Of a DNA stretch of 64,000 bases, positions 59,269 through 63,196 are shown piece by piece. The stretch lies in the NCBI RefSeq assembly GCF_000027125.1, contig NC_017626.1; one strand, 5' to 3'. Each line of letters starts with the position of its first letter. Positions within the stretch are counted from its first letter, which is position 1. The DNA comes from Escherichia coli 042 (GTDB taxonomy: Bacteria; Pseudomonadota; Gammaproteobacteria; Enterobacterales; Enterobacteriaceae). Under the pieces are notes generated by a model. That model was not told where the DNA came from, ran no database searches, and saw nothing but the letters and a program-made list of their open reading frames with translations. A program made the translations under genes and the position numbers.

Positions 59269-60279
59269 CTATTCAGAACAGAAATCACCTTTCTCTGCCT
59301 GAACACAATTAATCAATATATCCCAGTGACCGTTCTCTAAGCGAGCTACACCATAATACCCAGCCAGAACCAGGGTTTTTTCTGTACAACTGATATAACC
59401 AGTGCACATTTTTACCTCGCTGGGTAAATCTGGCTGAACAACATCATCCCCGATTATTTGCCACACACCATAATCAGACGTTGCCCAGACACAATTTTCA
59501 TACCATACCATTTGCCTGAACGGTAAGGTTAACTCCCCCCGATGAATCATCTTCCATTGATCTTTTCGACCTTTAAATACAGTACCGCTTTGCGCACCGA
59601 TATAAACATAGCCATCCTGACCACAACAGATAGATTCAATGAGCATGTTGCTGGGAAAATGAATTTGCCTCCATTCATCACCATCGAAATTCCAGACATC
59701 TCCTTTACCGCCTGCGGCATAGATATCATTTTCAGAGAAGCCATCCACACAACTAAAACCAGCAGCATCCAGGAATAGCATCTGTTCACGGATTGTTTTA
59801 ATTTCATCTTGCGCAGGGAGATGGATACCTTTATTTAGTTTCTCCCAATTATTTCTGTCTATCCTGCGAACAACACTACGTGCGGATCCTACAACATACA
59901 ATCGACCACCAATAGTCCGGGTATTGCTAATGGCAAATTCATATGGGATCGGTTCTTCAAGCCCTTCAAAACCACTACCTATAGCAAAAACCTCATTTTC
60001 CATTGTAACGCCCACGTACTGACTGAATGGAATACTGGTTGTAGCCGAAAATATCTTGTCCATTCCTTCATAACCGCTGTATCCCCATTGCTCTCCTAAT
60101 GGTTCATCAAAAAAAAAGGAAACAAAATTTTTTCTTGCCAGATGTTCTTCCATTACAGGGTCTATATCATCTCGCTTTTCTCGTGTAGTTATATAAATAT
60201 AACCAGTGTCTCTTACTGCAACACCATTAATATAAAACCCTTTGAATATTTCATTGTACTCATCTTGAGTAATAATCAT
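59269..60279 (-). CDS. island paralogue A (336 aa), unknown function; cytoplasmic, repeat-rich
   Basis: Homologous to paralogues B and C, especially in the C-terminal half (GxG..Y/W..G..W repeats); no signal peptide or TM; MIIxQ N-terminus shared by all three. Confidence 0.6.
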   Translation of the reverse strand: MIITQDEYNEIFKGFYINGVAVRDTGYIYITTREKRDDIDPVMEEHLARKNFVSFFFDEPLGEQWGYSGYEGMDKIFSATTSIPFSQYVGVTMENEVFAIGSGFEGLEEPIPYEFAISNTRTIGGRLYVVGSARSVVRRIDRNNWEKLNKGIHLPAQDEIKTIREQMLFLDAAGFSCVDGFSENDIYAAGGKGDVWNFDGDEWRQIHFPSNMLIESICCGQDGYVYIGAQSGTVFKGRKDQWKMIHRGELTLPFRQMVWYENCVWATSDYGVWQIIGDDVVQPDLPSEVKMCTGYISCTEKTLVLAGYYGVARLENGHWDILINCVQAEKGDFCSE

Positions 60280-60310
60280 GTTTTTAATCTCACATTATTT
60301 TCATTTGTTT

Positions 60311-60625
60311 TTACTGGAGTAAGAGTATGGACGGGATTGTTTTCCACCCATGCCCTTTCTGGAATCCCGGTGTCGCCGGAACATTCCCTTCACTGGTAGA
60401 GAAATACGAGCGATCTTTCTGTGCCACCATCGACTTACAGATAAATACGGTAGCTGTTCCGTTCTGCAAATCCCGGGCATACGCCGTGTTGGAATAAGGC
60501 ACAACGACCGGGCCTGTGGGCGGAGGAGGAGGGGACCAGCAGGGATCGGGAAATGCGCCAGCAGATTTCCCGTCAGACGCTCTGGAGCAGGCTTCCCGCC
60601 CGTTGATATAAACGTTAGTTTCCAT
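60311..60625 (-). CDS. PAAR-like (DUF4150-type) domain protein, 104 aa, probably a truncated T6SS effector N-terminus
   Basis: METNVYINGREA...FPDPCWSPPPPPTGPVVVPYSNTA...GTATVFI...KDRSYFSTSEGN matches the PAAR-like pattern I recall (FPDxC, PxPxPY.N, S.F..S.G[DE]); the ORF ends well short of any toxin domain. Confidence 0.5.
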   Translation of the reverse strand: METNVYINGREACSRASDGKSAGAFPDPCWSPPPPPTGPVVVPYSNTAYARDLQNGTATVFICKSMVAQKDRSYFSTSEGNVPATPGFQKGHGWKTIPSILLLQ

Positions 60626-61155
60626 AATGTGCTATCCGTGTACCCACTTTCCTTTAAATTAACTGCTGGCCCGGGAGGCTATTCAAACGCCATTGAATCA
60701 AAGAGGACATTCCAGGCATTACCATCATAAATAGCAGCTCCTCTGGAGCCACAAACCATCATCACTGTCCCATCGGGGGAAACATCAATTCTTTTACTTA
60801 AAACGGCCACTTCAGGAGGGACGGGTTTATGTTTTGCATGCATGGCGAGCACCAGTTTGTCATCTTCCAGTACCCAGATGCCATAATCACTGGCACACCA
60901 GAGACGTCCATCAAACCATCCCATGTCGAGGAAAGGCATGGTCATTCCACCATGCGTAATTTGTGTCCATTGCTCATTGCGACCCTTCCATATAGCACCG
61001 TCAAAATCAGCAATATAAACAAATCCGTCACCGGCACAGCAAACTGTGTACAGAAGTTTATTTGTCGGAAAAGGGAGTTTTTTCCATTGCTCACCATTAA
61101 AGTGATAAACGGTTCCCGTTCCACCCACTGCATACATATCTGACTCGGAAAAACC
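60601..61155. repeat. direct repeat, copy 1 (~555 bp, near-identical to 61751-62305)
   Basis: Covers the 3' ~475 bp of paralogue B plus ~80 bp downstream including the PAAR-like start; only a handful of mismatches by eye. Confidence 0.8.
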
Positions 61156-61719
61156 AGATAAATCCTGAAATAAGCTTCTGGACATCGACTCAGCCTTCCG
61201 TTCCAGGAATCCATCGGGAACAGGAATAGTTTGTGAAGCATCCAGCCAAACCTGATGATTAATTCGTTTATATATTCTTAACCCTCCCCCAATTGCATAG
61301 ACACTTGTTCCTACTCTGACTACCTTAATTATAGCTGTTCTCATGTCTGAGGATTTAGAAATAGGAATATCCAGATTATTTTCTCGTCCCTTGTATTCTC
61401 TGGTTTTGTAGCTTATGACTTCACAGTCGATATCAACTATAACTAATTCAGTTTGGGAAGGTGACCATCCAGCCGATATCGTTGGATAGCTCAAATTACC
61501 GAAAGACATCCCAAACACCCTGTTTTCAGGAGGGTTGTCAATAACTATTGATACCAGCTTGTGTTTAGGCATGTAATAGTCGTTGCCATATTCGATATGA
61601 TTTTCATCAATTTTTTCAATTAATAATAAGCCAACGCGGCCATGTTCAAAGCCATATGTACAATCATATACTTCAAAATTTTTAAAGGTTTTATCCCAAC
61701 GTTCTTGACTAATAATCAT
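60679..61719 (-). CDS. island paralogue B (346 aa), unknown function
   Basis: C-terminal ~158 aa identical to paralogue C, N-terminal half diverged; AAGGA SD. Confidence 0.6.
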   Translation of the reverse strand: MIISQERWDKTFKNFEVYDCTYGFEHGRVGLLLIEKIDENHIEYGNDYYMPKHKLVSIVIDNPPENRVFGMSFGNLSYPTISAGWSPSQTELVIVDIDCEVISYKTREYKGRENNLDIPISKSSDMRTAIIKVVRVGTSVYAIGGGLRIYKRINHQVWLDASQTIPVPDGFLERKAESMSRSLFQDLSGFSESDMYAVGGTGTVYHFNGEQWKKLPFPTNKLLYTVCCAGDGFVYIADFDGAIWKGRNEQWTQITHGGMTMPFLDMGWFDGRLWCASDYGIWVLEDDKLVLAMHAKHKPVPPEVAVLSKRIDVSPDGTVMMVCGSRGAAIYDGNAWNVLFDSMAFE

Positions 61720-61750
61720 TTCATTTCCTTAGTTATCACAATTATCATCA

Positions 61751-62305
61751 TAGCTATCTATAAACGTTAGTTTCCATAATATGCTATCCGTGTGCCCACT
61801 TTCCTTTAAATTAACTGCTGGCCCGGGAGGCTATTCAAACGCCATTGAATCAAAGAGGACATTCCAGGCATTACCATCATAAATAGCAGCTCCTCTGGAA
61901 CCACAAACCATCATCACGGTCCCATCGGGTGAAACATCAATTCTTTTACTTAAAACGGCCACTTCAGGAGGGACGGGTTTATGTTTTGCATGCATGGCAA
62001 GCACCAGTTTGTCATCTTCCAGCACCCAGATGCCATAATCACTGGCACACCAGAGACGTCCATCAAACCATCCCATGTCGAGGAATGGCATGGTCATTCC
62101 ACCATGCGTAATTTGTGTCCATTGTTCATTGCGACCCTTCCATATAGCACCGTCAAAATCAGCAATATAAACAAATCCGTCACCGGCACAGCAAACTGTG
62201 TACAGAAGTTTATTTGTCGGAAAAGGGAGTTGTTTCCATTGCTCACCATTAAAGTGATAAACCGTTCCCGTTCCGCCCACTGCATACATATCCGATTCGG
62301 AAAAA
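61751..62305. repeat. direct repeat, copy 2
   Basis: Covers the 3' part of paralogue C plus the downstream remnant of the PAAR-like start. Confidence 0.8.
61755..61778 (-). pseudogene. 7-codon remnant of the PAAR-like gene start (METNVYR-stop)
   Basis: Same upstream sequence and first codons as the 60311-60625 gene, then diverges into the paralogue B upstream region. Confidence 0.5.
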
Positions 62306-62871
62306 CCAGATAAATCTCGGAATCGACTTCTGGTTATTGCTTCCACCTTCCTATCTAACAATCCATCGGGGACAGGCAGGTATGTAGAATGTTCCCGCCA
62401 AATTTGGTGATCAACACGTTTGTATATTCTGAAACCACTACCGATAGCGTAAACACTGTTTTCAATTCGTACTACTTTTATTATAACGGAAAACATATCG
62501 ATAGAACCTGGTATGAGTATATTTATACTTTCTTCTACTCCTTTGTATACATCTTCTTTATAACTCATAACATCACGGTCCTGACTGACCATAACATATT
62601 CGGTCTGAGATGGGGGCCAACCAGAAGATATAGTCATCAGAGATATCCCTGTTGCGCGACGACCATATATGCGATATTTTTTGGAGAGGGTAAACGTAAT
62701 GGAAATTAATCTCTTTTCAGGTGGGTAAAAAGGGTTTTCATATTCGGCATGCTCCTCATCTACCACTTCAATCAATGAAAGACCTACTTTTCCATGCTCG
62801 TAACCATAGGTGCAGTCATATATATAAAAGCCTTTGAGATATTTCTGATACGATTCTATATCTATGATCAT
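61831..62871 (-). CDS. island paralogue C (346 aa), unknown function
   Basis: See paralogue B; GAGGTG SD; start 25 bp after the stop of the 99-codon ORF. Confidence 0.6.
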   Translation of the reverse strand: MIIDIESYQKYLKGFYIYDCTYGYEHGKVGLSLIEVVDEEHAEYENPFYPPEKRLISITFTLSKKYRIYGRRATGISLMTISSGWPPSQTEYVMVSQDRDVMSYKEDVYKGVEESINILIPGSIDMFSVIIKVVRIENSVYAIGSGFRIYKRVDHQIWREHSTYLPVPDGLLDRKVEAITRSRFRDLSGFSESDMYAVGGTGTVYHFNGEQWKQLPFPTNKLLYTVCCAGDGFVYIADFDGAIWKGRNEQWTQITHGGMTMPFLDMGWFDGRLWCASDYGIWVLEDDKLVLAMHAKHKPVPPEVAVLSKRIDVSPDGTVMMVCGSRGAAIYDGNAWNVLFDSMAFE

Positions 62872-62896
62872 TTATCACCTCAAATATCTTCATCGT

Positions 62897-63196
62897 TTAT
62901 AACACCCCCATCACCTGCATTGATTTTTGCAGAGTTAAATCACCACAGGTATAAGCGTCTTGGTAAGCTTTATCCAGTTGCGCTTTCAAACAAGATTTAT
63001 CACAACCGTACATTAATGCAACCTCATCAATTACCATACATCTGGCATCTTTATAACTCATTTCTTTTCCAAAATGCTTTTCTTCTATTAGAGTGCCTGT
63101 AGCTGAGTGTAATGCACCATGTGAACCAGTACGATTGTCTTTTCCTTCCAGACAAATTGTAGGCGCTTTGCCTTCGGTATATTCCCCCCCCAGCAC
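62897..63196 (-). CDS. hypothetical small protein (up to 99 codons from a GTG start; ATG alternative gives 54 aa), first gene of the paralogue array
   Basis: Cys-rich ORF coupled to paralogue C; the GTG start lies in a G8 homopolymer (63184-63191); the start codon is uncertain. Confidence 0.35.
   Translation of the reverse strand: MLGGEYTEGKAPTICLEGKDNRTGSHGALHSATGTLIEEKHFGKEMSYKDARCMVIDEVALMYGCDKSCLKAQLDKAYQDAYTCGDLTLQKSMQVMGVL

Follow-up and report, generated by a model that had tools for sequence, protein, structure and literature searches.

Candidate Tsi7-family propeller immunity genes, orphaned by toxin loss, in a tandem array of Escherichia coli 042

In Pseudomonas aeruginosa, the vgrG1b cluster (PMC11872809, PMC4067218) encodes the effector Tse7 (PA0099), which combines a DUF4150 with a Tox-GHH2 domain, and its immunity protein Tsi7 (PA0100; PMC10281587, PMC9846239, PMC4067218). 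Work with tse7–tsi7 deletion preys uses Tsi7 as the immunity gene (PMC10281587), and in isolates of this species in which a deaminase replaces the GHH2 domain, tsi7 is replaced by an unrelated gene (PMC9846239). Judging from homology and this literature, a Tse7-like effector has a PAAR-like DUF4150 spike domain at its N-terminus, then a linker, and at its C-terminus a Tox-GHH2 DNase of the HNH/EndoVII kind; such effectors ride the VgrG spike of a type VI secretion system (T6SS) via the PAAR-like domain and deliver the DNase to neighbouring cells, with Tsi7 protecting the producer. For Tox-GHH2, no immunity family appears in the 2012 census of polymorphic toxins, which also noted that propellers had so far not turned up among immunity proteins (PMC3482391). 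Here we describe three tandem paralogous genes (A, B and C) in a 64-kb stretch of Escherichia coli 042 (referred to as the window). We put at roughly 0.75 the probability that they encode Tsi7-family propeller immunity proteins, in an array that was orphaned by toxin loss and has kept its protective function.

Three propeller proteins related to Tsi7

All three genes are intact and lie on the minus strand, A at 59269..60279 (336 aa), B at 60679..61719 (346 aa) and C at 61831..62871 (346 aa). The order along that strand is a 99-codon open reading frame (ORF), C, a 7-codon ORF, B, a 104-codon PAAR-like ORF, A and a 103-codon ORF. BLASTP revealed 74% identity between B and C (E = 0) and 28-29% identity between A and either of them (E 5e-43 to 5e-45), confirming the three intact tandem paralogues of ~340 aa reported by an initial annotation of the sequence. 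The N-terminal motif MIIxQ...Y.DCTYG that it gave as common to all three held, in its Y.DCTYG part, for B and C but not for A.

Alignment of the family profile (73 sequences) with PA0100 by hhalign yielded a probability of 99.8% (E 2.8e-28, 195 columns). With BLASTP, the individual proteins matched PA0100 at E-values of 2e-20 (A), 3e-20 to 5e-19 (B, 31% identity over 211 aa) and 3e-19 (C), with 25-31% identity over ~200 residues across the three. PA0100 and the family moreover have the signature GFSxxDxYAVGxxGxxWHxDGxxW … CCAxDGxVYI in common. Because PA0100 aligns both with the family profile and with A, B and C, and carries the common signature, these are Tsi7-family proteins. The initial annotation had been unable to place the family; given the homology to Tsi7 it is not wholly uncharacterised, although it still lacks a Pfam or NCBIfam model, and the reading as a housekeeping enzyme family was rejected.

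The PA0100 sequence itself was reached from the PA0099 deletion primer printed in PMC4067218, by way of a metagenome pattern scan that led to the Tse7 sequence (315 aa) and an exact-protein look-up that led to the locus. Seven of the eight primer matches were chance matches in unrelated DNA (six of them AT-rich, with a GC content of 0.25-0.30), and the eighth was the Tse7 contig. The recovered locus encodes VgrG (VgrG1b), DUF6484, DUF2169, the 345-aa PA0098, Tse7, the 304-aa PA0100 and a HEAT_2 protein (PA0101). P. aeruginosa was not reached by a second, word-indexed protein search with a 116-sequence profile, no P. aeruginosa locus was among the 76 loci returned by a genome scan with an 11-sequence alignment, and PA0100 was absent from the top 50 structural matches in the AlphaFold Database (AFDB).

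An AlphaFold2 model of B, based on a 73-sequence alignment, reached a predicted local distance difference test score (pLDDT) of 96.4 and a predicted template-modelling score (pTM) of 0.93, and its 28 strands are arranged four by four in seven groups. On this model, A, B and C are predicted to be seven-bladed beta-propellers. The initial annotation had proposed structure prediction as a way to tell a propeller from an adaptor fold, and the model returned the former and not the latter; the repeats that it had placed in the C-terminal half are not restricted to it, as the whole protein models as a propeller. No helix in the all-beta model exceeds 8 residues, and the N-termini of the three paralogues (MIITQDEYNE, MIISQERWDK and MIIDIESYQK), which were read directly and not with a dedicated signal-peptide predictor, are charged and lack a hydrophobic stretch. 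This agrees with the absence of signal peptides and membrane segments noted before, and the proteins are predicted to be cytoplasmic.

Foldseek searches of the PDB revealed only generic propellers (tectonin, WD40 G-beta and Ycf48) at template-modelling (TM) scores of 0.5-0.6, and no solved structure of a relative; sequence searches of the PDB revealed only designed "Cake" propellers and lectins. Structural matches in the AFDB comprised many uncharacterised proteins annotated as BNR, WD40 or sialidase-like (TM 0.8-0.95). A sialidase or glycosidase enzyme was considered and rejected, because such annotation is transferred from the propeller fold only. For A, B and C, NCBIfam returned no match and Pfam only a sub-threshold match to Tectonin. 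The absence of a family model is of some consequence, as the family of seven-bladed propellers to which Tsi7 belongs is large: a profile search of 1.84 billion representative proteins, with family size counted as clusters at 50% identity and E ≤ 1e-30, yielded at least 1,197 clusters.

Several unusual architectures appeared among the family members. In P0062 / P0129 (559 aa) a Tsi7-type propeller is fused to a C-terminal SMI1_KNR4 (SUKH) immunity domain, and in P0037 and P0054 (445-448 aa; Ralstonia and Chitiniphilus) the propeller has a C-terminal extension of ~100 residues annotated as ankyrin-like; these fusions look like poly-immunity proteins. The family profile was also matched in 25-47 separate stretches of giant proteins of 2,000-6,700 aa (P0109, of 6713 aa, P0111, P0118, P0142, P0148, P0176 and P0233). 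These probably share only the blade repeat, are not immunity proteins, and inflate family counts at loose E-values.

Toxin remnants and the origin of the array

Each of the three genes is preceded by what is left of a toxin gene. C lies 25 nt after a Tox-GHH2 fragment, while B and A each come after the 3′ tail of a deleted toxin gene and have orthologues that follow intact GHH2 effectors. The remnant upstream of C (e1; 62897..63245, minus strand) comprises the last ~115 codons of a Tox-GHH2 (HNH/EndoVII) domain, is truncated at its 5′ end and contains one frameshift. It is read as two ORFs, 63225-63088 and 63196-62897; the latter (99 codons) matches Pfam Tox-GHH2 at 3.7e-6, in agreement with the RefSeq annotation. 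The frame change was shown by comparison with a Citrobacter toxin, and the remnant extends upstream in the other frame to about 63225-63245. It is 75% identical (amino acids) to the C-terminus of the corresponding e1 effector of Escherichia whittamii, with 81% DNA identity from 63245 onward, and has lost the catalytic GHH motif. The initial annotation described the paralogues and the PAAR-like starts of this region, but not the 99-codon ORF, and missed the toxin-gene tails preceding B and A.

Between C and B, a start stub of a second effector gene (e2; 61754..61777, minus strand) consists of the first 7 codons of a PAAR-like effector, ATGGAAACTAACGTTTATAGATAG, followed by a stop. The corresponding tail (61729..61758, minus strand) consists of the last 30 nt (9 codons and the stop), is out of frame with the 7-codon start, and ends 9 nt before B, which is the spacing of an intact array. 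The deletion junction is located at 61759/61758, where the blastn alignment with the E. whittamii array (L014) breaks, and L014:5412-6961 (1550 nt, nearly all of e2) is missing from the window.

Between B and A, the remnant of a third effector gene (e3; 60301..60625, minus strand) comprises a PAAR-like 5′ end (273 nt, 60625-60354) and ~45 nt of the 3′ end of a toxin gene. Its 104-codon ORF (60625-60311) matches Pfam Tox-PAAR-like at 7e-11 and is 62-68% identical to intact E. coli effectors over residues 1-91 only. The tail of ~45 nt matches the 3′ end of a toxin gene in Citrobacter, namely the one found before the orthologue of A, and its natural stop (60303-60301) lies 21 nt before A; the join is out of frame, so the 104-codon ORF ends at 60311. 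As the toxin-gene 3′ end directly follows the PAAR part in a different frame, e3 has lost its linker and toxin domain through an internal, out-of-frame deletion. The 7-codon remnant after C and the 104-codon PAAR-like fragment after B, both pointed out by the initial annotation, are thus real, and each starts 53 nt past the stop of the preceding paralogue.

Downstream of A, a 103-codon ORF (58865..59176, minus strand) is the 3′ fragment of a PRK06147 gene (NCBIfam 1.6e-8, covering the C-terminal part only), which is 93.6% identical in DNA to the end of the PRK06147 gene of E. whittamii. This thiolase-like family has been proposed as a T6SS adaptor preceding PAAR/Tox-GHH2 effectors (PMC7714669), and in intact arrays its gene precedes the next PAAR-like effector. 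The position of the fragment matches that in a Citrobacter array (L012), where an A-like immunity gene, a PRK06147 fragment and the next effector follow one another.

In Escherichia whittamii Sa2BVA5 the array (L014) is intact, in the order DUF2169–PRK06147–e1–i1–e2–i2. Window positions 63245-61759 (e1 remnant, C and e2 start) correspond at 81% identity to the last ~370 nt of e1, i1, the spacer and 19 nt of e2; positions 61758-60618 (e2 tail and B) correspond at 84% identity to the last 30 nt of e2, i2 and beyond; positions 60626-60354 (e3 start) correspond at 94% identity to the PAAR 5′ end of an effector; and positions 59128-58926 (the adaptor-gene fragment) correspond at 94% identity to the end of the PRK06147 gene. 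The E. whittamii counterparts of C and B are therefore i1 and i2, and A is 80% identical to the first immunity gene of the Citrobacter freundii array, which is located directly after an intact PAAR-like/Tox-GHH2 effector. On this basis C would be cognate to e1, B to the deleted e2, and A to e3.

Since the window holds a tandem effector–immunity array with destroyed toxins, the repeated unit of a paralogue and an effector start, which the initial annotation had recognised, is a real arrangement with another meaning, namely an immunity gene with the stub of the array's next effector behind it. The ancestral locus would have been a tandem array e1–C–e2–B–e3–A–PRK06147'–…, in which truncation or internal deletion inactivated every toxin gene of this E. 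coli lineage's copy but spared the three immunity genes, leaving an orphan immunity array in an insertion sequence (IS)-ridden island between nfrB and cusS. Adjacent toxin genes are destroyed in all three cases (e1 truncated and frameshifted, e2 deleted, e3 internally deleted), and the immunity ORFs are intact in all three. We consider it highly probable that A, B and C belong to the Tsi7 family of immunity genes and were orphaned when their toxins were deleted, and the tandem immunity array that the initial annotation held as its alternative is borne out by the Tsi7 homology, the position after GHH2 toxins and the toxin scars.

B and C also form a mosaic. Positions 60607-61165 and 61759-62317, which take in the last ~160 codons, the 53-nt intergenic spacer and 19 nt at the start of the PAAR-like gene, are ~98% identical in DNA, compared with only ~60% for the 5′ halves of the two genes; likewise, the synonymous divergence (dS) between B and C is 0.09 in the C-terminal third and saturated in the N-terminal part. 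In E. whittamii, the C-terminal ~120 residues of i1 and i2 are 100% identical and their N-terminal parts 42-62%, while e1 and e2 are 100% identical through the PAAR region and 58-68% in the toxin domain. These patterns suggest that the flanks evolve in concert, and that the toxin C-terminus co-diversifies with the N-terminal blades of the immunity protein. More tentatively, the toxin C-terminus and the N-terminal ~4 propeller blades might constitute an exchangeable cassette, bracketed by homogenised handles (the PAAR-like 5′ region on the one side and the last ~3 blades with the spacer on the other), as a route for the diversification of Tse7-type modules. In that case specificity would reside in the N-terminal blades, both the swapping of cassettes and the toxin deletions in the window would be driven by the same handles, and E. 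coli lineages with the orphan array would be protected from attackers of other species (Citrobacter, E. whittamii, Kluyvera or Salmonella).

Neighbourhood of the family across genomes

The gene neighbourhood was surveyed for 130 family genes in 84 non-redundant loci, with home-built hidden Markov models (HMMs) for the cluster components. The upstream neighbour was a Tox-GHH2 ORF for 58 of these genes and another family member for 32; for the others it was a PAAR-only fragment (3), a thioredoxin-like gene (2), a contig edge (5) or nothing recognised (30). When only genes that stand alone or head a tandem run are considered (98, i.e. 130 less 32), 58 have a GHH2 ORF upstream. Between the toxin stop and the point where the propeller match begins, the median gap was 28.5 nt. 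The link to T6SS and to DUF4150/PAAR-like effectors anticipated by the initial annotation is thus correct, in that family genes follow PAAR-like/Tox-GHH2 effectors in intact loci.

The survey bears directly on the function that the initial annotation preferred, in which the propellers are adaptors or chaperones that load the downstream-encoded PAAR-like effector onto the T6SS spike. The PAAR-like starts 53 nt after B and after C fit such a role, and the same order recurs in the tandem arrays L002, L012 and L014. However, an effector (PAAR/GHH2) lies within 300 nt downstream of only 7 of the 130 family genes, all in tandem effector–immunity arrays, against the 58 with a GHH2 toxin directly upstream, and what comes after the final propeller gene of an array is a HEAT-repeat gene rather than an effector. 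The adaptor slots are moreover already taken by DUF2169 and PRK06147 (PMC7714669), which resemble the propeller genes in lying in the same clusters near PAAR-like effectors, but are found upstream of the effector and belong to other families with other folds. The propellers show no homology to any adaptor family (DUF2169, DUF4123, DUF1795/Eag or PRK06147; NCBIfam and Pfam), they form tandem arrays without toxins, they are found in fusion with a SUKH immunity domain, and they are homologous to the immunity protein Tsi7. The gene also tracks the toxin type and not the PAAR domain (strain A16, below; PMC9846239). Position downstream of the toxin, lack of adaptor homology, propeller fold and Tsi7 homology led us to reject the adaptor reading, for which we see hardly any chance at all.

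In E. coli A16 and 2017-02-2CC, the order is VgrG, DUF6484, DUF2169, a thiolase-like gene, DUF4150 effectors, a HEAT-like gene and a thioredoxin-like gene. Effectors of 542 and 547 aa, with N-terminal Tox-PAAR-like and C-terminal Tox-GHH2 domains, each have, 8 nt further on, a gene homologous to A, B and C (33-38% identity). The second effector of A16 has a 90% identical PAAR domain and a metallopeptidase-like C-terminus, and is followed by an unrelated 149-aa gene. As these effectors have near-identical PAAR domains but different C-termini and different 3′ neighbours, the downstream gene follows the toxin type.

The family gene was generally found about 8-25 nt downstream of the Tox-GHH2 toxin domain in intact loci. 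A PAAR-like + Tox-GHH2 effector is followed by a propeller at 10-24 nt in Azoarcus, Ralstonia, a Budviciaceae bacterium and Chitiniphilus, and four effector–propeller pairs stand in tandem in Citrobacter freundii. The toxin ORF of Pseudomonas sp. RIT-PI-AD matches Tox-GHH2 but no PAAR-like Pfam domain, and the propeller gene still comes next. Stand-alone copies were found in Massilia and an Orbaceae bacterium. Another toxin family hidden in the unrecognised upstream ORFs was considered and rejected, since Pfam revealed only housekeeping genes and one Rhs fragment there, so that the family members at these positions are stand-alone, true orphans. Four to six family genes in a row, with no toxin gene between them, were found in Roseateles depolymerans (L065), a Chromatiales metagenome-assembled genome (L034) and Massilia aquatica (L027/L056), and these are orphan arrays much larger than the E. 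coli one.

A HEAT-repeat gene lies directly downstream of 26 of the 130 family genes. It encodes ~410-440 aa and follows the last propeller gene in clusters of Pseudomonas, Ralstonia, E. coli, Citrobacter and Budviciaceae (e.g. L004:10848-12508, L098:8880-10112 and L007:8343-10054); outside Pseudomonas it is usually followed in turn by a ~130-aa thioredoxin-like gene, and both are absent from the window.

The propellers might alternatively be accessory factors of the toxin, i.e. activators or stabilisers, or partners of the HEAT and thioredoxin-like genes, instead of simple inhibitors. An activator or stabiliser role has been reported for some Tle/Tli pairs, and the conservation of the HEAT-repeat and thioredoxin-like genes after the propeller in many clusters suggests a larger module. 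Nevertheless, toxin-less tandem arrays and stand-alone copies in unrelated contexts fit immunity instead, the window keeps the propeller genes without HEAT or thioredoxin genes, and Tsi7 serves as the immunity gene in studies with tse7–tsi7 deletion preys (PMC10281587). An accessory role therefore seems very improbable to us.

An immunity function would then operate as follows. A, B and C would each bind one cognate GHH2 toxin variant in the cytoplasm and block it, with specificity presumably located in the variable N-terminal ~200 residues. The array, if expressed, would act as a defence-only orphan immunity against T6SS attack by enterobacteria with matching toxins.

Island setting and comparison with known systems

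The island between nfrB and cusS that holds the array is uncommon in the species. Region 59000-63400 is present in 158 of 5426 complete E. coli genomes (~3%) and 100% identical to many of these, and a stretch with all three ORFs at ≥99% identity was found in 153 records. At blastn sensitivity, an e2-like effector at ≥80% length was found in none of the 5426 genomes (0/5426); more distant DUF4150 effectors were found in 13 complete E. coli genomes, and only the island's own fragments were seen in the island-bearing records.

Other debris surrounds the array. A second orphan toxin/immunity module (55776-56727, minus strand) contains a SUKH-3 immunity gene (56524-56063; Pfam 6e-12), preceded by a 66-codon ORF (56727-56527) with a weak YwqJ-like deaminase match (E 0.01) and a C..C motif, and followed by an Rhs YD-repeat fragment (56045-55776). 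Two copies of an ISAs1/ISEc1 (H-repeat) transposase lie in 54561-58625, one of them intact (55697-54561) and the other split by IS1 (IS1 ORFs 57916-57219; ISAs1 pieces 58625-57945 and 57176-56712). The otherwise identical island of strain CH4796 (L001) annotates this second ISAs1 as one continuous pseudogene with an internal stop, which indicates that IS1 is absent there. At the nfrB end, three small minus-strand ORFs at 53740-53294 (148 aa), 53266-52838 (142 aa) and 52773-52237 (178 aa, hydrophobic) lie in DNA of 30-33% GC and have no Pfam or NCBIfam match; these may be further immunity genes or cargo.

Comparison of the three genes with their orthologues yielded ratios of nonsynonymous to synonymous divergence (dN/dS) of 0.07 (A), 0.14 (B) and 0.13 (C), with dS saturated for more distant pairs; at the sequence level, this shows A, B and C to be constrained proteins under purifying selection between orthologues. 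It remains to be weighed whether the array, with the same Tsi7-type origin, is a functionless relic carried in a decaying island and affords no protection. The neighbouring toxin genes, the Rhs fragment, the PRK06147 fragment and the IS elements all point to island decay, and no promoter-like site above chance was found upstream of the genes. Since an e2-like effector is missing from all complete E. coli genomes, nothing within the species stands out as the selective agent, and the island copies are nearly identical, so the island may simply be young. Against this stands the condition of the genes: three of three immunity ORFs are intact, whereas within the same 4 kb all three toxin ORFs, as well as the PRK06147 gene, are destroyed, an asymmetry that is unlikely under neutral decay. 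Matching toxins do exist in co-habiting Enterobacteriaceae, and the low dN/dS lends weak support to function. We therefore regard a functionless relic as unlikely.

Several points nonetheless weigh against an array that still protects, or against its attribution to Tsi7. The dN/dS values mostly reflect time spent in intact arrays and not present use, and the promoter/terminator scan upstream of the genes detected nothing above chance (5 sites vs 13.5 expected). A T6SS or cognate toxin elsewhere in the host genome would fall outside the view of the 64-kb window. The hhalign match spans the C-terminal two-thirds only, the N-terminal ~100 residues of Tsi7 being unaligned, and Tsi7 is 40 residues shorter than the enterobacterial proteins; its experimental status is taken from secondary citations. 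Finally, the 30 of 130 family genes with nothing recognised upstream have no recognisable toxin. Given that e2-like effectors at ≥80% length are absent from the complete E. coli genomes, of which 13 carry more distant DUF4150 effectors, any protection would be directed against other enterobacteria or rare E. coli.

With orphan immunity of the Tsi7 type as the preferred explanation, three genes annotated as "hypothetical / WD40-YVTN-BNR-like" become named candidates for orphan immunity to Tox-GHH2 T6SS nucleases. The kind of system (orphan immunity, Tsi7-type) is already known, and no new kind of system is described here. Three features are of modest interest: the seven-bladed propeller fold, the missing Pfam or NCBIfam model, and the mosaic of variable N-terminal and homogenised C-terminal parts. 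The array further provides a clean, testable example of toxin loss with the antidote kept, and one that suggests where the specificity site in the immunity protein may be.

Compared with Tsi7, the enterobacterial proteins are ~40 residues longer and their N-terminal third is unalignable with it, their cognate effectors have an extra linker of ~250 residues (about 540 aa vs 315 aa for Tse7), and the window genes are orphaned, triplicated and outside any T6SS cluster. Both are nevertheless encoded directly after a DUF4150 + Tox-GHH2 effector, and the intact enterobacterial relatives keep the cluster order VgrG–DUF6484–DUF2169–thiolase-like–effector–immunity–HEAT. The arrays of E. whittamii and Citrobacter freundii come closer still, with the same genes in the same order, matching spacers (9 nt and 17-21 nt), and neighbours that show the same immunity mosaic of variable N-terminal and identical C-terminal parts; they differ in that their effectors are intact, whereas those in the window are all truncated or deleted, and in that the window array has moved into, or been left in, the nfrB–cusS island without VgrG or DUF2169.

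Orphan immunity arrays are also found in the auxiliary clusters of Vibrio cholerae, in the acquired interbacterial defence islands of Bacteroidales, and as orphan C-terminal toxin (CT)–immunity modules of Rhs and contact-dependent inhibition (CDI) systems in E. coli and Salmonella. The window array differs from these in its immunity family, which is a propeller and not one of the typical small immunity domains, and in that integrase or mobility evidence is lacking and protection is putative. It resembles them in its mobile debris (ISAs1/H-repeat, IS1, the Rhs fragment and the SUKH-3 gene), and above all in consisting of tandem immunity genes without a working toxin, located beside toxin fragments.

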